Shown piece after piece: positions 27,697 to 39,775 of a stretch of DNA of 64,000 nt. Source of the DNA: Acidimicrobiia bacterium (GTDB lineage: Bacteria > Actinomycetota > Acidimicrobiia > Spongiisociales > ZC4RG35); NCBI GenBank assembly GCA_041742825.1, contig JBGTNX010000017.1, forward strand, positions 7,716-71,715, given 5' to 3'. The translations under genes and the position numbers were made by a program. The stretch's first letter is position 1, and every line of letters starts with the position of its first letter. The notes under the pieces are model-generated. The model did not search any database. It saw only the letters and a list, made by a program, of their open reading frames with translations, and was not told the origin of the DNA.

Positions 27697-28341
27697 GTGA
27701 GTGAACTGATGCGACTGGATTCTGTGGGAGTGTCCCTCGGGGGCGTGACTGTGCTCGCTGACGTCAGCCTCAACCTTGGTTCCGGGGAGGGGATCGCTAT
27801 CGTCGGCCCCAACGGGAGCGGGAAGACTACGGTTCTCCGGCTGATGGCCACCCTGCTCCGGCCCGCCTATGGCACAGGGACCATCCTCGGGGCAGACCTG
27901 GCGGGGGTTGTCGACCGATCGGTGCGGACCTCGATTGGCCTGATCACACATGCTCCGGCCCTACTCGACGAGTTGACGATCTCGGAGAACCTCATCCACT
28001 TCTGCCGGGTGTCGGGGCGCGCTGAAGCGACGGTACCGAAAGCCCTCTCCGCTGTAGGTATGGAAAAAGTGACTGACCGGCCGGCGGCTCGATGCAGTTT
28101 CGGGATGAAGCGCAGGGCGGAGATTGCCTGGCTGCTTATCGCCAAACCGCGGCTGCTGCTCCTGGACGAGGCCCGCTCGGGCCTCGACGCTGAGGCAAGA
28201 ATCCTCGTCGACTCGCTTTCCCGACTCACCCGGGAGCGTGGCGGAGGCGTAGTGGCAGTGTCCCACGAGGAAGGCGATTTAGGCACGGACCTGGTCGCGG
28301 TGCACCGGCTCGAAAACGGGCGGCTGGGGCAGACCTCATGA
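27697..28341 (+). CDS. ccmA: heme exporter ATP-binding protein CcmA
   Basis: Walker A GPNGSGKTT, signature-like CSFGMKRR, Walker B LLLDEA; first gene of the ccm cluster. Confidence 0.8.
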   Translation: MSELMRLDSVGVSLGGVTVLADVSLNLGSGEGIAIVGPNGSGKTTVLRLMATLLRPAYGTGTILGADLAGVVDRSVRTSIGLITHAPALLDELTISENLIHFCRVSGRAEATVPKALSAVGMEKVTDRPAARCSFGMKRRAEIAWLLIAKPRLLLLDEARSGLDAEARILVDSLSRLTRERGGGVVAVSHEEGDLGTDLVAVHRLENGRLGQTS

Positions 28342-29012
28342 GTCTCTGGCGTCAGTCGACCGAGGTGATGAGGGTCGACCTGGTCGTAGAGCAACGTATC
28401 GGTGACACCTTCCGTATCGTGCTCCCCTTTGCCGTTGTCGCTTTGATGATCTTCTCCCTGGCGATGCCGGCCGGCGTCTCCGATGTCGGGGATGTGGGAA
28501 CGGCTGTCTTCTGGGGTGTGGCCATTCTCTACGGGATGCAGGTTGCCCTGCGCACATCGATGAGCGAAACGGAGCAACGCAAAGACATCGCCATGCTCCT
28601 CGGCCTCGATCCGGCAGCACGCTTCCTCGGAAGGTCGATTGCCGCCGCCCTGCTCTTGACGGGTTTCATGGCGGTCCTCTTCATTGCGATGGTGCTGCTG
28701 TTCACCCCTGACCTCCCCCGGGGTTGGGCCTGGCCAACCGGCCTGGCTATCCTCCTGGCGGCAGCCGGTCTGGCGTTGCTCGCCACCCTGGCCGGCGAGG
28801 TGGCCTCAGGACTCCGCAACCGCTCTGCACTCGCCTCTCTGCTGATCGCTCCCCTCGCCATCCCCCTGGTCGTCGGGGCCTCACAGGTGCTGGAATCTAT
28901 GGCGGGGAACAACGGTATCCTGATCTGGATTTTGCTTCTGATCACAACAGATCTGGCCCTGCTGGTCGCAGGAGTCGGGCTCTCCAGACCGCTAGAGGAA
29001 GCGTCACGATGA
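28338..29012 (+). CDS. ccmB: heme exporter membrane protein CcmB
   Basis: 224-aa six-helix membrane protein, ATGA-coupled between ccmA and ccmC. Confidence 0.75.
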   Translation: MSLWRQSTEVMRVDLVVEQRIGDTFRIVLPFAVVALMIFSLAMPAGVSDVGDVGTAVFWGVAILYGMQVALRTSMSETEQRKDIAMLLGLDPAARFLGRSIAAALLLTGFMAVLFIAMVLLFTPDLPRGWAWPTGLAILLAAAGLALLATLAGEVASGLRNRSALASLLIAPLAIPLVVGASQVLESMAGNNGILIWILLLITTDLALLVAGVGLSRPLEEASR

Positions 29013-29719
29013 GACGAGTACAGATAATGCTCCTGATCGCCGCATTGGCCCTGGCCTTCGGCGCTTACCTGGCATTCACCGCACCGCACGACGCCCTGCA
29101 GGGTGAGTTCACGGCGATGCTCTACATACACGTTCCGACCTTGTGGCTTGCCTTCCTCGCCTTCGGGATCACCGCACTCGGGTCGATAATGTATCTGATC
29201 GGCAAGAAAGCCCGTTGGGACCGCGCTGCGGAGGCGTCGGCGGAGATCGGCGTTCTCTTTGCGGTGGTTGGAGTCTTCACCGGGATGGTCTGGGGCCAGG
29301 CGGTGTGGGGCCAGGCCTGGGATTGGGGCGACGCGAGACTGGCCACCACTGCAGTGATGATCTTCGTCTACATCGGATATCTGGCATTGCGCAAGGCCAT
29401 ACCCGACCCTGAGGTCAGGGCACGGAGATCTGCCATTCTCGGGACCATCGCCGTCATTCAGGTGCCGCTCGTCTACTTCTCGGTCAACCTCTTCCGTACC
29501 CTCCACCAGACCCAATCGATCCGGCCCGACGGGTCGACAATGGATTCTGAGATGCTGGTCGCACTGCTGGTCAACGTGGTCGCCTTCACCATTCTCTATG
29601 CGGCGCTGTTCATGGGGCGCACCTACGTGGCCCGCCTCGAGGCTGCCGGGGTGACGCAAAGGGCACCGGCAGCCGACTCTGTCTCCTCTCCGCGTCTCAA
29701 GGAGATCGAAGATGTCTGA
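29009..29719 (+). CDS. ccmC: heme exporter/heme lyase component CcmC
   Basis: Start at the ATGA overlap with ccmB; WWD motif WGQAWDWGDARL. Confidence 0.9.
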   Translation: MRRVQIMLLIAALALAFGAYLAFTAPHDALQGEFTAMLYIHVPTLWLAFLAFGITALGSIMYLIGKKARWDRAAEASAEIGVLFAVVGVFTGMVWGQAVWGQAWDWGDARLATTAVMIFVYIGYLALRKAIPDPEVRARRSAILGTIAVIQVPLVYFSVNLFRTLHQTQSIRPDGSTMDSEMLVALLVNVVAFTILYAALFMGRTYVARLEAAGVTQRAPAADSVSSPRLKEIEDV

Positions 29720-29813
29720 CGCCTTCGTCGTGTTCGTGTCTTACGCGGTTGTCTACGGCTCAACTCTGGGTTACGCCGCCTATCTCCACTTCCGCCGGAA
29801 GCGAGCTCAGTAG
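29712..29813 (+). CDS. ccmD: heme exporter protein CcmD (33 aa, below ORF-track cutoff)
   Basis: Hand-translated: MSDAFVVFVSYAVVYGSTLGYAAYLHFRRKRAQ*. One TM followed by a basic tail. It overlaps the ccmC stop by 8 nt and ends 2 nt before ccmE, the canonical ccmD position. Confidence 0.75.
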   Translation: MSDAFVVFVSYAVVYGSTLGYAAYLHFRRKRAQ

Positions 29814-29815
29814 AC

Positions 29816-30223
29816 ATGGAGCACCGCACTCTGGTTCTTTCTGGAATCGGAGGGATCATCGCTCTGATCATCACCATGTCGCTCGTCGGCCTGGGCGACA
29901 ACCTGACCTATTACCTATATCCGACCGAAGCAGTCGAGCGACGAGCTGAGTTCCCCGACGGGGAGAACTTCAGGCTGGCCGGAGGCGTGGTGGAGGGCAG
30001 CGTCTCCGCGGAAGGTGAAGACCTTTTCTTCGACGTCTCCGATGGCGGCGCGACGATATCGGTCAAGCTGGTCGACACTCCTCCCCCGCTGTTCGACGAC
30101 ACTGTCCCGGTCCTCCTCGATGGAGCCTGGGACGGTGACACCTACGTCGCGACGAATGCTCTCATCCGCCACGACGAGAACTATGTCGTACCGGAAGAGG
30201 GAACCCCGGCCGAGGGCGACTGA
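29816..30223 (+). CDS. ccmE: cytochrome c maturation heme chaperone CcmE
   Basis: N-terminal TM, OB-fold body, heme-binding RHDENY (HxxxY) near the C-terminus. Confidence 0.9.
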   Translation: MEHRTLVLSGIGGIIALIITMSLVGLGDNLTYYLYPTEAVERRAEFPDGENFRLAGGVVEGSVSAEGEDLFFDVSDGGATISVKLVDTPPPLFDDTVPVLLDGAWDGDTYVATNALIRHDENYVVPEEGTPAEGD

Positions 30224-32250
30224 TGGCGTTGTCTCTGCTCGGGACTGCGGGGATCCTCGCCGGGCTGCTCGGTGCCATCCTGCTGACGTATCGCGGGGTA
30301 CAGACTGCCACGTCGGCTACCGGCGTCGGCGATCTGGGACCACCCGCAAAACTCCTCCTCGGTGGGTCGGTCATCGCGATTGTCGCAATCGAACTGGCGC
30401 TGCTCACCAACGACTTCGCAATTTCCTACGTCGCCAACCACCACGCCTCGACCACACCGTTCCCGTTCAACGTGGCGAGTGCCTGGGGTGCCCTCGAAGG
30501 CTCGATCGTGCTCTGGGGTCTGGTGCTGGCCGGTTTCACCTGGTTCGTGGTGAGGAGGTACCGGAACGGGCCTGATCACCTCGGGGCGGGGGCGTTGGCA
30601 GTTCTCGGAATGATCTCTGTGTTCTTCTTCGGGATGATGATCACAATCTCCAACCCCTTCGAGGTTTGTGTGCAGGCCGCCGAGCAGGCATGTGCCGCTT
30701 CCAGTCCGTGGCCGTTTTCACCTATAGACGCACCGCTCGAGGGCGCTGGTCCCAATCCGCTCCTCCAGAACCACATCCTGATGGCTATCCACCCCCCGAT
30801 GCTCTACCTCGGATACGTCGGCATGTCGGTGCCTTTTGCCTATGCGATCAGCGCCCTAGCCCTGCGCATCCCGGGTCCGGTCTGGCTCCGGCGTTCCCAC
30901 CGTTCGACCCTGGTGGCGTGGAGCTTTCTCACCGCGGGCATCGTCCTCGGCGGCTGGTGGGCGTACGAAGTCCTTTCCTGGGGTGGGTATTGGGCGTGGG
31001 ACCCGGTCGAGAACGCCTCGTTCATGCCCTGGTTGGTGGCAACCGCTTTCCTCCATTCCGCCATCGTCCAACAACGTCGCGACATGCTTCAGGCCTGGAA
31101 CTTCGTCCTCATCATCTCAGCTTTCTCGCTGACAATCCTCGGCACCTTCCTCACCCGTTCGGGAACGATCAACTCGGTCCACTCCTTCACCCAGAGTGCA
31201 ATCGGACCGGCGCTGCTCGGATTCCTCGCCCTGGTCCTCGTTGGGTCTTTCACTCTGTTCGCCAACCGTTCCCACCTGGTCAGCTCGGCGCCGCGCATCG
31301 ACAGCTTCGTCAGCCGGGAGGGGGCGTTCCTCGCCAACAACCTTCTCCTCACCCTCTACGCCTTTGTGGTCCTGATCGGGACCACATATCCCCTTCTCGT
31401 CGAAGCGTTCACCGGCATCCAGGTGGGGGTGGGAGCACCCTTCTACAACCGGCTCGCTGTTCCGCTGACCTTCGCCCTGCTGCTCGTGATGGGTTTCGGC
31501 CCGATCACACCATGGGGAAGTGCGTCGCCCGGTGTCATCTGGAGACGGAGCCGGCTTCCGCTATTTGTCTCAGTTGGTGCCGGCCTCGCAGTTGCCCTCT
31601 TCGTCAGCCGGATCGGATGGGTGGTGCTGGCGGTTGTCCTCGCCACATTCGTGACCGGCACGATCATCGGTCTCCTTATCGAACAGGCCCGGCGGCGCGC
31701 CGGCCGACGCGAGCTCACTCTGGTCGGCGGCCTCCGCGAAGTGGTCGGAGGGGACACCGCATTCTGGGCGGGACAGGTGAGCCACATCGGAGTGGTGCTG
31801 GTGGCGGTGGGAATTGCCTTTGCCGCGAATCTCGCACTTCACGACACGGTTGTCCTCGAGCCCGGTGAGTCGGTCGAGTTTGCAGGTTATGAGCTTGTGT
31901 ACGAGGGCCCGTTCCAGTTCGAAGAGCCGCAGCGGATAGTGCGCGGGGCCCGCATCACCGTCTTGAGAGACAACCAGCTCGTGGCGGGGATGGAACCAAC
32001 CAACAATTTCTATGGGTCCCAGGCTTCAGGCATCATCACCCCCGACGTTCTCACCCGACCTGAAGGTGACCTCTACCTGACCTTGCGCGACCTCGACGAG
32101 GTAAGTGCCACGTTGTCCCTCGATACTTCCCCCCTCATCTGGCTGCTCTGGTTCGGGGGGCTGGTAGCCGCGGGGGGTGGTTTCTGGGCCATGGCCGCCC
32201 GCGCCTCGGAGCGAAGCCTGATCAGCGAGAGTGCACCGGCGGATGTCTGA
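30223..32250 (+). CDS. ccmF: cytochrome c heme lyase subunit CcmF
   Basis: 675-aa polytopic protein with WWD motif WGGYWAWDPVENASFMPW. Confidence 0.92.
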   Translation: MALSLLGTAGILAGLLGAILLTYRGVQTATSATGVGDLGPPAKLLLGGSVIAIVAIELALLTNDFAISYVANHHASTTPFPFNVASAWGALEGSIVLWGLVLAGFTWFVVRRYRNGPDHLGAGALAVLGMISVFFFGMMITISNPFEVCVQAAEQACAASSPWPFSPIDAPLEGAGPNPLLQNHILMAIHPPMLYLGYVGMSVPFAYAISALALRIPGPVWLRRSHRSTLVAWSFLTAGIVLGGWWAYEVLSWGGYWAWDPVENASFMPWLVATAFLHSAIVQQRRDMLQAWNFVLIISAFSLTILGTFLTRSGTINSVHSFTQSAIGPALLGFLALVLVGSFTLFANRSHLVSSAPRIDSFVSREGAFLANNLLLTLYAFVVLIGTTYPLLVEAFTGIQVGVGAPFYNRLAVPLTFALLLVMGFGPITPWGSASPGVIWRRSRLPLFVSVGAGLAVALFVSRIGWVVLAVVLATFVTGTIIGLLIEQARRRAGRRELTLVGGLREVVGGDTAFWAGQVSHIGVVLVAVGIAFAANLALHDTVVLEPGESVEFAGYELVYEGPFQFEEPQRIVRGARITVLRDNQLVAGMEPTNNFYGSQASGIITPDVLTRPEGDLYLTLRDLDEVSATLSLDTSPLIWLLWFGGLVAAGGGFWAMAARASERSLISESAPADV

Positions 32251-33244
32251 GCGCTTGAAAAGCCTATCGATAGTAGGGGTCATCCTGGCAATGGCGATTG
32301 CACTGGTGTTGCTGGTCGTCACAAATGAATCTCCCGACGACAGGGTGGAACGCATCGGCTCGTCGATCAAATGCCCGGTCTGTCAGGGAGAGGCAATCGC
32401 CGACTCGCCCGCCCAGATGGCAACGGACATGATGGACCTCGTCGAGGAGCGGGTCGCAGGAGGCGCAACCGACCAGGAGATAATCGACGAGTTGCTCGGC
32501 TCGTTCAGCGGTGCCGTGCTCCTCGATCCACCTCTATCCGGGGCAACCCTGATTCTCTGGTTGGCGCCGGTCGCAGTCCTCGTCGGCGGAGTGGCAGTGG
32601 TCCTCTGGTGGAAGAAGCACCCTGGCGGAACCGCACCTGACGAGAAGCCTCAGTCCACTCGCGCCAGGCGGCTGGTAGGAGGACTCGTCCTCATCGGCGG
32701 TTTCGCCGCCATAGTCCTCGTTGCATCAACTCTGCTCCAGGACCGTGCTGGTCCCAACGAAGGCGTGGCCGATGTCGCCGACGAGAACCTCGCCGAGGCA
32801 AGCAACGAGACCATGGAGGCTGTGATCGCGGCCAACCTGGACAACCCCCAGATCAACGGGATGCGTCTGGCCCTCGCCGAGAGATACTTCGAAGCGGGTG
32901 ACTACCGCTCTGCCTTCCCCCACTATCTCCAGGTCGCACAACACTCCCAGTCAACTGACGAAGAGGCGACCACTGCCCTCGTCCGGCTCGGGTGGATGGC
33001 CTTTGACGGAAACGGTGAGGTCGACACCGCGATCACTCTCCTCGACGAGGCTCTCGAGATCAGCCCCGGGTTGCCGGGAGCCCTCTACTTGAAGGGTCAG
33101 GTGCTGTGGTGCGGGTCCGGTGAGAACGAACAGGCGGCGGAGCTCTTCGAGCAGGTCCTTGGCGACAGTGAGCTCGAAGATGACACACGATCACTCGTTG
33201 AAGCCGACCTCGCCCTGGCCTCAGCAGGGGAGCCCTGCATATGA
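32243..33244 (+). CDS. ccmH: CcmH (CxxC) fused to a TPR CcmI-like domain
   Basis: SIKCPVCQGE thiol motif, TM, then TPR-like repeats (LALAERYFEAGDYRSAFPHY...). ATG 32243 overlaps the ccmF stop by 8 nt; the ORF-track GTG at 32231 is the alternative. Confidence 0.85.
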   Translation: MSERLKSLSIVGVILAMAIALVLLVVTNESPDDRVERIGSSIKCPVCQGEAIADSPAQMATDMMDLVEERVAGGATDQEIIDELLGSFSGAVLLDPPLSGATLILWLAPVAVLVGGVAVVLWWKKHPGGTAPDEKPQSTRARRLVGGLVLIGGFAAIVLVASTLLQDRAGPNEGVADVADENLAEASNETMEAVIAANLDNPQINGMRLALAERYFEAGDYRSAFPHYLQVAQHSQSTDEEATTALVRLGWMAFDGNGEVDTAITLLDEALEISPGLPGALYLKGQVLWCGSGENEQAAELFEQVLGDSELEDDTRSLVEADLALASAGEPCI

Positions 33245-33834
33245 GAGGCAGCGCGGTCAAGTGGGCGGGCATTGCGATTGCTGCCGGAGCGGTGATCTTC
33301 TCGGTAGTCCTTGCCAGCCGGTTCGGCACCGATCCCGGGCTCGTCGAATCTCCGCTGCTCGGCGAGGCCGCCCCAGTGCTCGAGCTTCCGCTCCTCGACG
33401 GTTCAGGAACCTTCGACACCACCGACCTGAATGGCAGGGTGACAGTCATCAACTTCTTCGCATCCTGGTGTCTCGAATGCCGGAACGAACATGCCGACCT
33501 CGTCGCCACATCCGACGCCTTCGCCGACAGGGGGGTGCGCTTCGTCCAGATCTCCTATCAGGAGGGCGCCGGTGCCTCGGCCACATACCTCGATCAGGCG
33601 GGTCGGTCAGATTCGACCTTGTACCTCCACGACCCGGGGAGCAGGGCCGCAATCGCCTACGGGGTGTTCGGGATCCCGGAGACATTCTTTATCGACGAGT
33701 CAGGGACCGTGGTGGGGAAGATCATCGGTGAGGCAGATGCATTCGTCCTCGGAGCCACCCTGGACACGATCCTCGGCGGGGATGTGCCCGGCCAGCAGAT
33801 CACCGGTGACACCCAGCAGCGGCCCGAGGGTTAA
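33241..33834 (+). CDS. thioredoxin-fold thiol:disulfide oxidoreductase (CcmG/DsbE/ResA-like)
   Basis: N-terminal TM, FFASWCLECRNEH CxxC motif, GVFGIPETF cis-Pro region; ATGA-coupled to ccmH. Confidence 0.85.
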   Translation: MRGSAVKWAGIAIAAGAVIFSVVLASRFGTDPGLVESPLLGEAAPVLELPLLDGSGTFDTTDLNGRVTVINFFASWCLECRNEHADLVATSDAFADRGVRFVQISYQEGAGASATYLDQAGRSDSTLYLHDPGSRAAIAYGVFGIPETFFIDESGTVVGKIIGEADAFVLGATLDTILGGDVPGQQITGDTQQRPEG

Positions 33835-35249
33835 CTGTCCGGTATCGGTTCCTCGTCGGGCCGCAAGACCTCGAGGGCAACTTCGTCGAAGCTGACCGTG
33901 TCGATCGATGCCGGGCCGGTGTCGAGGAGGAAGACGTCGAAGAACCCGATCAGATACTGATTGAGGATGGGAATCATGCGCCCGACTCCGATCGGCCCGC
34001 GCAGGCCCATCTCGTCGGCCAGAGGCGAGAACAGGGGGAACATCAGGAAATCATTGTGCCCTGCGCCATCGATCCCTATCCAGTAGGTGGTTGTGACACT
34101 TCGCTCAGCGATGCCGCGCAAGATCGCGTCATTGGGCAATTCATCCCATTCGGCCGACCGGAGGAACATCGCCGGCCTGGTCGCCGAAACTGCGAGGGTC
34201 CGATCAGGCAGGTGCTCCACCCAGGGGTCCATTCCGAGCACGGCATCGCAGCGCTCGTCAGTGAGGCACACACTCACCGCCGCACCGCCGCCGACACCGT
34301 GGCCGTACATGCCGATCCGGGTCATGTCGATGCTTCCCGTCACCTGTCCAAACGGGCCTGCGTCGCCTTCCTCCAGGGCGTTGACTATCCCGACGAGATC
34401 GTTGGAATGGGTTTCGACCAGGAGAGCAGCCGCCTCGTCGTATATCTCGGGGTTCACATCTTCTCCGCCGGGGATCGCTTCGGGCCAGTACCGGACCAGG
34501 TCTCCGTCCTCGAACACCGTTGCCACCGCCGAGTAGGTGTGATCGGGGGCGATCACCACATATCCATTGGAGACGAGGTTTTCGATCTGGTTCAACGCCA
34601 GAGACCGATACCCCTGCCACCCGTGGCTGTAGATCACCACCGGAAAGGTGCCCGGCGCCACCGTCAAGCCCTCATAGGTATGGGTTTCGGTGTACCTGAG
34701 ATGGCTGAGAAACCACGAGGGAAGACCCACCGAGCGGGATAGTTCCGGTCCGATCACCGGCCAATCCGGGTGGATCATCCCCGCAACAGTCTCGCTATCG
34801 GGGAGGGCCGGGTAGAACACCTGGACCACCAGTTCACGGTTCCGGCCCGGCCGGGGGCCGTACACCTCTTCGGATTCGGGGATTGAAAGCTCGAGGGTGA
34901 CCGTGCCCACGGTTTCCGGGCCTGACGGTGCCGGCAACTCCGGAACCGGAAACAGCCAGGCGGGCGACGAGACGAGCAGGAGCCCGGCCAGCCCGAAGAC
35001 GCCACGGGCAATCCGGCTCGACCACTTGAGGTTGCGATCGAGAAAAACGATGTCGCCGATGATCAGCCCGATAGCCGCGGTATAGAGAGGGATCAGCTGC
35101 CAGCGAAATCCTCCGATCTGCAACTGGGCGATCAGCATCGCGAACATCAAGCCGGAGGCAATCCCCCGCCTCGGGCGAACCCCGAAGACCGCCGGCCACG
35201 CCACGGCGAAGACACAGGTGAAAAGGAGAAGAAGCTCGAATTGTCTCAC
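33831..35249 (-). CDS. membrane-anchored lipase/cutinase-fold (PAF-acetylhydrolase-like) protein with Ser-to-Gly nucleophile substitution
   Basis: Four N-terminal TM helices; VVIYSHGWQG oxyanion region; nucleophile elbow reads GHGVGG (Gly codon GGT at 34298..34296) instead of GHSxGG; downstream Asp (LGMDPW) and His (GAGHNDF) are retained. Confidence 0.7.
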   Translation of the reverse strand: MRQFELLLLFTCVFAVAWPAVFGVRPRRGIASGLMFAMLIAQLQIGGFRWQLIPLYTAAIGLIIGDIVFLDRNLKWSSRIARGVFGLAGLLLVSSPAWLFPVPELPAPSGPETVGTVTLELSIPESEEVYGPRPGRNRELVVQVFYPALPDSETVAGMIHPDWPVIGPELSRSVGLPSWFLSHLRYTETHTYEGLTVAPGTFPVVIYSHGWQGYRSLALNQIENLVSNGYVVIAPDHTYSAVATVFEDGDLVRYWPEAIPGGEDVNPEIYDEAAALLVETHSNDLVGIVNALEEGDAGPFGQVTGSIDMTRIGMYGHGVGGGAAVSVCLTDERCDAVLGMDPWVEHLPDRTLAVSATRPAMFLRSAEWDELPNDAILRGIAERSVTTTYWIGIDGAGHNDFLMFPLFSPLADEMGLRGPIGVGRMIPILNQYLIGFFDVFLLDTGPASIDTVSFDEVALEVLRPDEEPIPDS

Positions 35250-35303: not shown

Positions 35304-35669
35304 CTACCACGAATCAGGGATCGGCGTCCCCTGGTGAAAGCTCATGAGCCATTTACCCGACCGTTTCACCCAAATCGAGCTGCGGCGAACCTCCCTGCCG
35401 GTCGGGCCGGTTGTCAGGTAGGTGCAGAGCATCACCGTCGGATAGATCTCGCGGACCTCCCAGTCCTTGACCACCACCTCTTGGGAGCGGCCCCGTGACA
35501 TCTCCCTCACGATGCCTACCAGGTCGTACTGGCGCCCTCTGGTCCCGATCTCGGTGAACTCGTCGGTAAGCAGTTCCATGACCTTTGACGTGTCCCTTCT
35601 GAAATCGGGGTCCAGAAGCTGCATTTCGAGATCGCGAAGCAGCTCCTCGGTGGAGATTTCAATCGGCAT
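35304..35669 (-). CDS. DUF4440/SnoaL-like (NTF2 fold) protein
   Basis: 121 aa; the ...FTEIGTRGRQYD...SSIWVKRSGKWLMSFHQGT pattern is typical of DUF4440. Confidence 0.65.
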   Translation of the reverse strand: MPIEISTEELLRDLEMQLLDPDFRRDTSKVMELLTDEFTEIGTRGRQYDLVGIVREMSRGRSQEVVVKDWEVREIYPTVMLCTYLTTGPTGREVRRSSIWVKRSGKWLMSFHQGTPIPDSW

Positions 35670-35692: not shown

Positions 35693-36295
35693 CTATTCAG
35701 TCAGACCGATGAGGTTCTCGAGCGCCGCTCTGATCTCATCTTCTGACCTGATCCCCGGCCAGGAATCGACGACTGTGTGGTCGGCAGCGATCAGAACGGT
35801 GACCGGTTGAAAGGGAACACCGTAGAGGGCGAATATCGCCTCTTCGGCATCCAGACCCCACTGGATCTCACCGGAGAGAAACAGCTCCTCGGCCCTCGCC
35901 TCGGTCAGTTCGAAGCTCGACTTCCAGGCCGGTGCGACGAAGTCGACTCTGTCGGCGTATTCAGAGGCAAGTTGGTCGACGACGGGCAACTCCCGTCGAC
36001 AGGTCGGTCACCACTCGGCCCAGAAGACGAGATATACCGGCCGGGCTCCTTCGGAAAGGGTGTAGCTGCCACCATCCCCGAGTTCCAAAGTGAAATCAGG
36101 AGCCAGTTCCCGGTCCGACGTTGTCGTCGTCTCCCCCTGGCTTGTTGTGGTCTCACCCGCCCCGGGCAGCGTTGTGGTGTCTGAGGTGACGACAGTCGTC
36201 TCACCGGGGTCGGCTATCGACGTTGTCGTTCCGGCGTCACCGGCACAAGCTGAGGCCACCAACACGAGGAGACCGAGAGTAACCGACTTTCTCAT
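35693..36295 (-). CDS. thioredoxin-fold (TlpA/ResA-like) lipoprotein, candidate selenoprotein with UxxC motif (in-frame TGA at 36010..36008)
   Basis: ORFs 36008..36295 and 35693..35989 are in one frame, separated by a single TGA: ...VYLVFWAEW-TGA-PTCRRELPVV... Lipobox LVASAC and a Thr-rich linker at the N-terminus. SECIS-like hairpin downstream. Confidence 0.7.
35975..36000 (-). promoter_or_regulatory. putative bacterial SECIS stem-loop
   Basis: mRNA UGA-CCGACCUGU-CGACGGG-AGUUG-CCCGUCG: a 7-bp GC stem (35998..35992 / 35986..35980) with a GU-containing apical loop starting 16 nt after the UGA. It can extend via the flanking GUCGAC palindromes. Confidence 0.55.
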
Positions 36296-38847: not shown

Positions 38848-39266
38848 GACCGCGTCGACTTTCTCAGAGGTAGGTCAGGGTCGACAGGCAATTAGTAACC
38901 CCGGCGAAAGGTGACCCCCATTTCGGTCCGGTAAAGCGTGCCGCGTCAACCCGGGTAGTTCCACTTCCGAAAGTGGTAGGGGACGCGCTTACTTTCCACT
39001 TACAAGAGTTCGGCGCTGGCCCGGACGGGCTGATATTCACAAACGAGCGAGGGACACCGATCCGGCGCAGCCCGATCTCGACAGTCGTTCGGCGTGCTGG
39101 TGATGTGGTCGGGATTGCGAAGGGTTATGGATTCCACGAGTTGCGCCACCACTACGCATCTCTGCTGATTTCATCAGGTTGTTCGGTATCCGTCGTGCAG
39201 CGTCGTCTCGGCCATGCCACGGCGCAGAAGACGTTGGACACCTGCTCGCAACCTATGGCCGGATGA
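38848..39266 (+). pseudogene. tyrosine recombinase/integrase, C-terminal catalytic fragment (truncated, frameshifted, Tyr to Cys)
   Basis: ...DRVDFLRG (one frame) then VRVDRQLVTPAKG..PVKRAASTRVVPLP...GFHELRHHYASLLISSG..VQRRLGHATAQKTLDTCSQ (next frame). The HxxR box is present, the catalytic Tyr codon reads TGC, and the N-terminal domains are missing. Confidence 0.8.
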
Positions 39267-39393: not shown

Positions 39394-39396
39394 ACG

Positions 39397-39424
39397 CTGC
39401 GAGTCGATCTGTAAGCCGGATTCT
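39397..39424. repeat. 28-bp direct repeat (3' end of intact rnpB; att site)
   Basis: Identical to 37684..37711. Confidence 0.9.
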
Positions 39425-39775
39425 GTGACCTGTCGCGCTCTGGCAATGCCGGAACGACAGTAACGACCATCCATCTAGGCGAACTGTCTCCAGTTCGCTC
39501 GAGCGGCCCACCCGGGATATTCAGCGGGCCGCTGATCCCTGCTTGGCCTTGCTCCTGGTGGGGTTTACAAGCTGCCCCGGTCGCCCGGGGCACTGGTGGT
39601 CTCTTACACCACCTTTTCAACCTTGCCTGTGTCCGGAGACCATCGGCGGTTTGTTTTCTGCTGCACTTTCCGTCGGGTTGCCCCGCCTGGGAGTTACCCA
39701 GCACCGTGCCCTGTGGAGTCCGGACTTTCCTCGTCTCCGCAAAAGCGGAGCCGCGGCCGTCCAATCGACTCGCTG
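39397..39775 (-). ncRNA. rnpB: RNase P RNA, bacterial type A
   Basis: The minus strand reads GCGAGUCGAU...GAGGAAAGUCCGGACUCC (CR-I)...GGUGUAAGAGACCACC...ACAGAAUCCGGCUUACAGAUCGACUCGC. The P1 strands GCGAGUCGAU/AUCGACUCGC pair. Length about 380 nt; ends approximate. Confidence 0.9.

Follow-up and report, generated by a model that had tools for sequence, protein, structure and literature searches.

A conserved in-frame TGA at the active site of a predicted thioredoxin-fold lipoprotein of Acidimicrobiia is probably a selenocysteine codon

The stretch of DNA considered here (the window) comprises 64,000 nucleotides of contig JBGTNX010000017.1 from an Acidimicrobiia bacterium, and the gene in question is on its minus strand, where a frame running from 36295 to 35693 has a single interruption, the TGA of FWAEW-TGA-PTC at 36010..36008. 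Around this TGA the codons of the minus strand read TTC TGG GCC GAG TGG TGA CCG ACC TGT CGA CGG GAG TTG CCC GTC GTC GAC. The two open reading frames (ORFs) listed here, 36008..36295 and 35693..35989, belong to one common frame with the TGA alone between them, as had been pointed out in a reading made from the letters of the window by themselves (the sequence-only reading), and the TTG at 35989, which that reading took to be the only candidate start of the downstream piece, is indeed the earliest codon at which translation could restart. Orthologues match the read-through coding sequence in length and in architecture (Table 1). A lipobox pattern, VASAC, comes after a hydrophobic N-terminus, and such a pattern is present in 50 of the 54 N-terminal fragments of TGA forms, both being pattern matches; the LVASAC lipoprotein signal and the Thr-rich linker of the sequence-only reading are again read from the sequence. 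Cys17, the predicted lipid-attachment residue of the window protein, is conserved to at least 90% in the family alignment, across which the linker varies in both length and sequence.

Comparison of the TGA with its counterparts in related sequences is what gives it meaning. A search for protein homologues, using as the query the read-through protein with Cys in place of the TGA, yielded about 65 full-length clusters (roughly 190 amino acids) that all read WAEWCPxC at the TGA position, and 54 clusters of 110-270 amino acids, among the 120 protein clusters listed, terminate exactly at ...VFWAEW. Orthologous DNA was taken from one-genome-per-species representatives and from JGI metagenomes, the codon after FWAEW being read in each locus, and among 130 such sequences it is TGA in 118 (104 of them distinct), TGC or TGT in 12, and TAA, TAG or any other codon in none. 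The named records are nearly all metagenome-assembled genomes of Acidimicrobiia. The 118 TGA-form sequences were independently assembled and are 45-85% identical at the protein level, the closest (locus L002, JBHJOQ010000061.1) having 83% identity in the protein itself and 85-93% in the neighbouring genes. The TGA therefore stands, as proposed from the sequence, at the N-terminal redox Cys of the WCxxC motif, aligned with the invariant Cys96 of the Cys-form homologues. Differing disruptions among relatives, which the sequence-only reading had named as the mark of a decaying gene, were not seen, the same single codon being affected in every case. In a neighbour-joining tree of 177 domain sequences the Sec (selenocysteine) and Cys states are interleaved, with at least 10 changes by parsimony, which agrees with the frequent interconversion of Cys and Sec that is known from published work (PMC1794560).

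Public records of the gene (NCBI, JGI, ENA) hold it as two fragments or translated under the wrong genetic code; for the 95-residue fragment of the window itself an exact look-up gave no record. In one of the latter, P0054 (JGI Ga0568846_0286704, L164:99-716), the public protein reads WAEW-W-GSC with Trp at the Sec position. A natural UGA-to-Trp variant was considered here and rejected, as the DNA has TGA and was translated under another code by the gene caller of the source, and the Trp is evidently an annotation artefact hiding a selenoprotein. One Acidimicrobiia genome, L041 (CBDCBK010000010.1), has the gene as two tandem paralogues, which share the position of the TGA codon (8876 and 10109) and each possess the hairpin described next.

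Just 3' of the UGA the messenger can form a stem, CGACGGG/CCCGUCG, which begins 9 nt after the UGA and whose apical loop AGUUG begins 16 nt after it, exactly as noticed in the sequence-only reading. It is extendable by U-G and G-C pairs to 36001..35977, and its minimum free energy (MFE) is −11.6 kcal/mol alone and −14.1 kcal/mol within the 42 nt that follow the UGA. The published model of the bacterial selenocysteine insertion sequence (bSECIS) has a loop of 3-9 nt, a stem of 4-16 bp, a G in the first two loop positions, a spacing of 16-37 nt from the UGA and an MFE of at most −7.5 kcal/mol (PMC13188914 Fig. 2). With a loop of 5 nt, a stem of 7 bp, G2-U3 in the loop, a spacing of 16 nt and −14.1 kcal/mol the hairpin lies within all of these limits, so that the likeness to bacterial SECIS geometry claimed for it earlier is borne out, and it moreover co-varies with the TGA state. 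The folding energy of the single hairpin of the window was rejected as evidence by itself (z = −0.89). What counts is the comparative signal, TGA being present in 118 of the 130 orthologues and the hairpin being tied to that state.

Several features of the alignment make this link. At third codon positions where a change would be synonymous (nt 18, 21, 24 and 27, counted from the TGA), 45 TGA forms show 96-100% conservation, as against some 40-75% at third positions elsewhere. When the stem is specified, 95% of cells are paired and three of the nine pairs show changes on both sides, values that 0-1 of 500 shuffles reach; the compensatory changes are G-C to A-U or U-A at pair 14/30, A-U to G-C at 15/29 and G-C to A-U at 17/27. 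RNAalifold finds a 6-bp core unguided. Of the distinct sequences, 100 of 104 with TGA can form every pair of this core, as compared with 1 of 11 with Cys (Fisher p = 1.4e-10). The R/K-E-L-P-V peptide is unchanged in Cys forms, which spell it with GAGCTC, GAGCTG or GAACTT instead of GAGTTG, whereas the Leu codon in the loop is UUG or UUA in 103 of 104 TGA forms, TTG making up just 12% of the Leu codons in the genes of the window. The loop AGUUG itself is near-invariant in TGA forms (97/104). Among the Cys forms, L099 (Ga0307505_10032536, TGC) keeps a hairpin, CGACGGGAGTTGCCCGTT, which differs from that of the window at the last stem position only, and so looks like a recent Sec-to-Cys switch with a relic SECIS; partially decayed versions of the hairpin occur in L107 and L155.

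A fold class can be assigned to the protein. Scored with Cys substituted for Sec, the read-through protein matches the Pfam models Redoxin (PF08534; 5e-12, 46.3 bits for a cut-off of 26.6), AhpC-TSA (PF00578; 8e-11, 42.3 for 26), Thioredoxin (4.5e-7, 30.2 for 23.5) and Thioredoxin_2 (29.3 for 27). One review names a category of selenoproteins by a PF00578 or PF13098 domain together with UxxC (U being Sec); here both domains match and the motif is U-P-T-C, which by that rule puts the protein in the category. An AlphaFold model was made of the Cys orthologue P0002, which is 65% identical to the window protein, with a family alignment of 55 sequences. The domain, a thioredoxin fold with N-terminal beta-hairpin and central helical insert, has a predicted local distance difference test score (pLDDT) of about 98, and the linker one of about 60 and no secondary structure; CxxC (residues 89-92) lies at the N-terminus of helix alpha1 (90-106), and the invariant Pro157 (P164 of the window protein), which by analogy with the fold family would be in the cis conformation, comes directly before the central strand 158-162. 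Foldseek places at the top DsbF of Mycobacterium tuberculosis (3ios) and ResA of Bacillus subtilis (2f9s/1st9), with template modelling (TM) scores of 0.87-0.91 and root-mean-square deviations (rmsd) of 1.4-1.5 Å (TM 0.91 and 1.4 Å for ResA); its matches also include CcmG, DsbE/MPT53 and the surface lipoproteins Etrx1/2 of the pneumococcus, and a sequence search of the PDB returns the same set of structures. The TlpA/ResA/DsbE-type thioredoxin fold that had been proposed from the motif is thus upheld by the Pfam matches and by TM scores of about 0.9 for the orthologue model. None of the curated NCBIfam models reaches its threshold for the window protein: the DsbE/CcmG models TIGR00385 and NF011941 give 23.7 and 23.5 bits for cut-offs of 123.15 and 359, the ResA model NF002854 gives 47.7 for 170 and the TlpA model NF047696 gives 27.6 for 230. 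The model of ResA-like WAxxUGC selenoproteins, NF041054, gives 24.5 bits for 300, and with its U-P-T-C in place of UGC the window protein is not a member. The protein is therefore in the ResA/TlpA/DsbE structural class but outside those named families.

Overall, these observations are best explained if the UGA at 36010..36008 is decoded as Sec via the SelB/SECIS mechanism, and if the gene 36295..35693 on the minus strand encodes one 200-residue exported lipoprotein, a thiol-disulfide oxidoreductase of the ResA/TlpA/DsbE class with an N-terminal active-site Sec (W-U-P-T-C). We put the probability of this at roughly 0.88. We infer that Sec rather than another residue is inserted and that insertion depends on SelB, and export and lipidation of the window protein would follow from its N-terminal pattern. 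Several points weigh against it. The energy of the hairpin is ordinary for its G+C content (z = −0.89, 41 of 200 shuffles folding equally well), its 16-nt spacing is at the extreme lower limit of the bSECIS model, and its stem is without the bulged U found in E. coli fdhF. Because the aligned sequences share ancestry, the Fisher and shuffle tests treat them as more independent than they are, and when the 3' partners are slid by +3 they still pair in 81% of cells, owing to GTCGTCGAC periodicity. The structural model is that of the Cys orthologue P0002 and not of the window protein itself.

Genes for Sec insertion likewise lend no help. Neither the 64-kb window nor any of the fetched loci yielded a tRNA-Sec, selA, selB or selD, an uninformative result given that these amount to about 2% of the genome and to one neighbourhood each. 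ARAGORN and Rfam detect only a tRNA-Val and an RNase P RNA in the window, ARAGORN finds no tRNA of any kind in 48 loci, and tblastn with SelA, SelB and SelD of E. coli gives no match in the window and 81 loci; as Rfam has no bacterial SECIS family, the lack of an Rfam match for the hairpin is equally uninformative. Further selenoprotein genes were sought as in-frame TGAs that have a redox motif and are flanked on either side by coding-like base composition. The scan brought up no second such gene in the window, all candidates there being shadow frames or neighbouring genes that share a frame, and no recurrent further selenoprotein family in the flanks of the loci. In the same class, Acidimicrobiia, all 84 complete Actinomarina genomes are reported to have selC, selA, selD and a divergent selB, and around five predicted selenoproteins each (2026 preprint, bioRxiv 10.64898/2026.04.03.716425); this is a class-level precedent and not evidence for the organism of the window.

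The main remainder of the probability goes to a programmed read-through that is independent of Sec, in which the UGA would be read as Trp, Cys, Arg or Gly by a suppressor tRNA or a near-cognate one, and the hairpin would be a general stimulator. This is improbable, although it is in keeping with the lack of Sec machinery among the genes of the window and fetched loci, with the lack of another selenoprotein gene nearby, and with a hairpin that has minimal spacing and, unlike the model SECIS of E. coli, no bulged U. It has to contend with the position of the UGA, exactly at the catalytic Cys of CxxC and so at the classic site of Sec/Cys exchange, where Trp, Arg or Gly would inactivate the enzyme, and with a hairpin that fits the bSECIS model down to the G-U of its loop. 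It also sits poorly with the Sec machinery of the same class (bioRxiv 10.64898/2026.04.03.716425), and with the repeated TGA-to-TGY changes on the tree, at least 10 in number, which fit the known dynamics of Sec and Cys (PMC1794560).

Less probable again, and indeed very unlikely, is a split gene whose translation stops at the TGA to give a 95-residue lipoprotein stub, the rest being made from the TTG at 35989 or not made at all. Gene callers do annotate it in this way in NCBI, JGI and ENA, and the GGGAG directly before the TTG bears a superficial resemblance to a Shine-Dalgarno sequence with a start codon, but no spacer separates the two, and a product beginning at LPVVD would be half a thioredoxin fold lacking a signal peptide and both active-site residues, neither half forming a domain alone. 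The codon for Cys99 is TGT in 77 and TGC in 41 of the 118 TGA forms, varying only synonymously, and because it sits between the TGA and the first possible restart the intervening stretch must be translated; these 18 nt from TGA to TTG are thus under selection at the amino-acid level. In eight TGA forms, moreover, the first 15 codons past the TGA include no ATG, GTG or TTG. Beyond the TGA the frame is open for 100-106 codons in 113 of 115 complete TGA forms and for 117 and 231 codons in the remaining pair, the corresponding frame of the Cys forms having 103-108 codons. Mean pairwise differences at the three codon positions are 0.32/0.26/0.52 downstream of the TGA as against 0.19/0.19/0.51 upstream, from which it follows that both halves evolve as coding sequence under purifying selection. 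Collectively this evidence from the downstream half excludes a pseudogene, a sequencing error and a split gene of the stop-and-restart type. The TGA form with 231 open codons (L044, from 10322 onward, JAYEIJ010000060.1) has a downstream frame whose length suggests a C-terminal extension or fusion.

Next to nothing remains for a pseudogene or assembly error, in which a decaying TlpA-like gene would carry a nonsense mutation or a wrongly called base: a single window could not by itself rule this out, and public records do hold fragments, but with TGA at the same codon in 118 independent assemblies of 45-85% protein identity, TAA and TAG never seen, no other disruption and a downstream frame under purifying selection it is effectively refuted. 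Genome-wide reassignment of TGA to sense (as in genetic codes 4 or 25) is refuted too, since TGA terminates 16 of the 24 long ORFs of the window and is the final stop of most orthologues of the same gene, and the Trp of P0054, the one record in its favour, reflects the gene caller's choice of code, the locus having TGA in its DNA and not giving that product under code 11.

Table 1. Coordinates in the window of the read-through gene, its parts and the genes around it
Feature	Position	Strand	Remarks
Complete read-through coding sequence	35693..36295	−	200 codons and TAG stop (35695..35693); Sec at codon 96
Signal peptide with lipobox (MRKSVTLGLLVLVASA-C17), predicted	36245..36295	−	sequence pattern
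Thr/Gly/Ser-rich flexible linker	36107..36244	−	residues 18-63; 16 Thr in 46 residues by count
ResA/TlpA/DsbE-class thioredoxin-fold domain	35696..36106	−	residues 64-200; Pfam, orthologue model, Foldseek, PDB sequence search
In-frame TGA, predicted Sec codon U96	36008..36010	−	N-terminal nucleophilic position of W-U-P-T-C; aligns with invariant Cys96 of Cys-form homologues
Resolving Cys99 codon TGT of UxxC	35999..36001	−	Cys codon in 118/118 TGA forms
bSECIS-type hairpin	35980..35998	−	7-bp stem CGACGGG/CCCGUCG; apical loop AGUUG 35991..35987
Proline P164 of the cis-Pro loop, QPV motif	35804..35806	−	invariant column in two family alignments
System I cytochrome-c maturation operon	27697..33834	+	Pfam assignments
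ccmA	27697-28341	+	Pfam
ccmB	28338-29012	+	Pfam
ccmF	30223-32250	+	Pfam
ccmH	32231-33244	+	Pfam
ccmG-like redoxin	33241-33834	+	Pfam
Hydrolase	33831-35249	−	between ccm operon and Sec-candidate gene
DUF4440 gene	35304-35669	−	between hydrolase and Sec-candidate gene

The cytochrome-c maturation (ccm) operon is convergent with the Sec-candidate gene and separated from it by 1.86 kb, the ccmG-like gene ending at 33834, so the distance of about 2 kb given in the sequence-only reading was close. On the other side come an AIG2-like gene and then a MIP channel. The order ccm, hydrolase, (DUF4440), Sec-candidate gene, AIG2, MIP is kept in about 28 genome loci that include both TGA and Cys forms (the latter being L022, L024, L025 and L030), and this common synteny makes the two forms positional orthologues. 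The operon has a CcmG-like gene of its own, and the Sec-candidate protein is accordingly an additional paralogue. At more distant TGA-form loci (L029, L034-L036, L038-L040, L043) the ccm neighbourhood is replaced, with a same-strand ABC-ATPase gene some 2.5 kb downstream; linkage to ccm is thus not universal in the family. A System I operon (ccmABC-EFH and a ccmG-like gene) is present in the window and in loci L001-L041 of these Acidimicrobiia; most cultured Actinobacteria have System II (ResB/ResC/CcdA). In L001 (3189-4097, minus strand) a membrane protein of the DsbD_TM/CcdA type, a weak Pfam match, is encoded some 6 kb from the TGA-form gene and is a candidate electron donor for the reductase.

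If the UGA does specify Sec, expression of the gene may proceed as follows. During translation the UGA at 36010..36008 would be recoded, the hairpin 9 nt downstream being bound by SelB with GTP and Sec-tRNA(Sec), and SelB would place Sec in the A site of the ribosome, competing there with release factor 2. The mature protein would be exported, lipidated at Cys17 and tethered on the outer face of the membrane through its Thr-rich linker, where a selenenylsulfide couple of U96 and C99 could reduce (or isomerise) the disulfides of extracytoplasmic clients, to be re-reduced presumably by a membrane electron carrier of the CcdA/DsbD type. As to the client, the conserved place beside ccmABC-EFH-ccmG points to the maturation of cytochrome c or of a respiratory oxidase as the leading guess. 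Etrx proteins serve in the repair of oxidised surface proteins, and by analogy a similar role may be considered for the window protein. One could go further and suppose, tentatively and against the odds, that Sec is the prevailing and long-kept state of a ccm-linked, lipid-anchored reductase across much of Acidimicrobiia, a class widespread in samples from soil, sediment and the sea, and that the AGUUG/16-nt hairpin is a lineage-specific SECIS subtype. Were that so, part of the envelope redox maintenance or respiratory-cytochrome maturation of these monoderms would be selenium-dependent, and the subtype could be used to mine the remainder of the Acidimicrobiia selenoproteome, which annotation now misses.

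Set among known systems the gene is of a familiar kind, one that annotation pipelines commonly split in two. No type of bacterial selenoprotein is commoner than the one with a thioredoxin fold and Sec at the first Cys of CxxC; UxxC proteins with this fold have been catalogued since 2005–2008, and the established bacterial families include thioredoxin-fold, Prx-like and 'thiol:disulfide interchange' selenoproteins (PMC1794560 Table 1; PMC2398784 Table 2; PMC13188914), among them the exported DsbA-like and DsbG-like ones (PMC1794560; PMC2398784; PMC13188914). In the Global Ocean Sampling (GOS) survey the UxxC sequences of Prx-like and Trx-like type ran into the hundreds, a pfam08534 group among them (PMC2398784), and a UGC-type TlpA family is listed in recent reviews (PMC13188914). 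Two expectations of the sequence-only reading were consequently overstated, namely that an exported Sec-thioredoxin near ccm would be unusual, exported members of UxxC families being known (PMC1794560, PMC2398784, PMC13188914), and that selenoproteins are uncommon in Actinobacteria, which in a 2006 count were one of three phyla rich in selenoprotein families (PMC1794560) and which include Actinomarina with its reported Sec machinery (bioRxiv 10.64898/2026.04.03.716425).

With the bacterial UxxC thioredoxin-fold selenoproteins the window protein shares Redoxin, AhpC-TSA and Thioredoxin_2 domains, the N-terminal Sec of UxxC, Cys orthologues and a bSECIS directly downstream in the coding region. 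It differs from the published ones in that its clade is confined to Acidimicrobiia and has FWAEW-U-P-T-C, a lipobox, a Thr-rich linker and ccm synteny, and in that Sec is the majority state among the recovered sequences of the clade; close orthology to the published representatives WP_010940744.1 and WP_011366075.1 (Geobacter and relatives) is unlikely. The WAxxUGC family NF041054 has in common with it a ResA/TlpA-like fold and an active-site-region Sec after W-A-x-x, whereas the motif of that family is U-G-C, with Sec next to Cys, instead of U-x-x-C, and its model has 354 positions. ResA, DsbE/MPT53, DsbF, Etrx1/Etrx2 of Streptococcus pneumoniae, CcmG and TlpA resemble it in fold (TM 0.83-0.91 and rmsd 1.4-2.0 Å, for the orthologue model), in the position of W-C-x-x-C, in the conserved Pro loop and in predicted extracytoplasmic anchoring to membrane or lipid, and ResA and CcmG also in a genomic link to cytochrome-c maturation; all of these are Cys-only, however, and only 24-29% identical to the window protein. 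The hairpin, like the fdhF SECIS of E. coli and the bSECISearch consensus, is a coding-region stem-loop immediately 3' of the UGA with a small loop and G-U near its 5' side, and unlike them it combines minimal spacing (16 nt) with a short, perfect, G+C-rich helix of 6-7 bp without the bulged U of fdhF.

What appears to be new is thus the Acidimicrobiia clade, unrecorded except as fragments, the kind itself and its exported members being already known. Knowledge of how selenoproteins work is unchanged, and the finding would not surprise a specialist. Its use is of a more practical sort: in more than 100 genomes and metagenome contigs of Acidimicrobiia the active-site enzyme is mis-annotated, which would be mended by a family model that has Sec as residue 96, and a well-supported selenoprotein is added to a class whose use of selenium has only just been noticed. 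The large natural set of Sec and Cys orthologues, with its inferred switches (at least 10) and the relic in L099, should be useful for following the rise and decay of a SECIS within coding sequence, and there is a hint that an extracytoplasmic redox step beside cytochrome-c maturation gains from Sec.

Elsewhere in the window a bacterial class A RNase P RNA gene (rnpB; 305 bits) adjoins a short ORF (39396-39772 on the minus strand and 38973-39266 on the plus strand for the pair). By eye the product of this ORF, …HELRHHYASLLI…RRLGHATAQKTLDTCSQ, resembles the catalytic C-terminal portion of a tyrosine recombinase in which another residue has taken the place of the final Tyr, and the ORF may be an integrase remnant.

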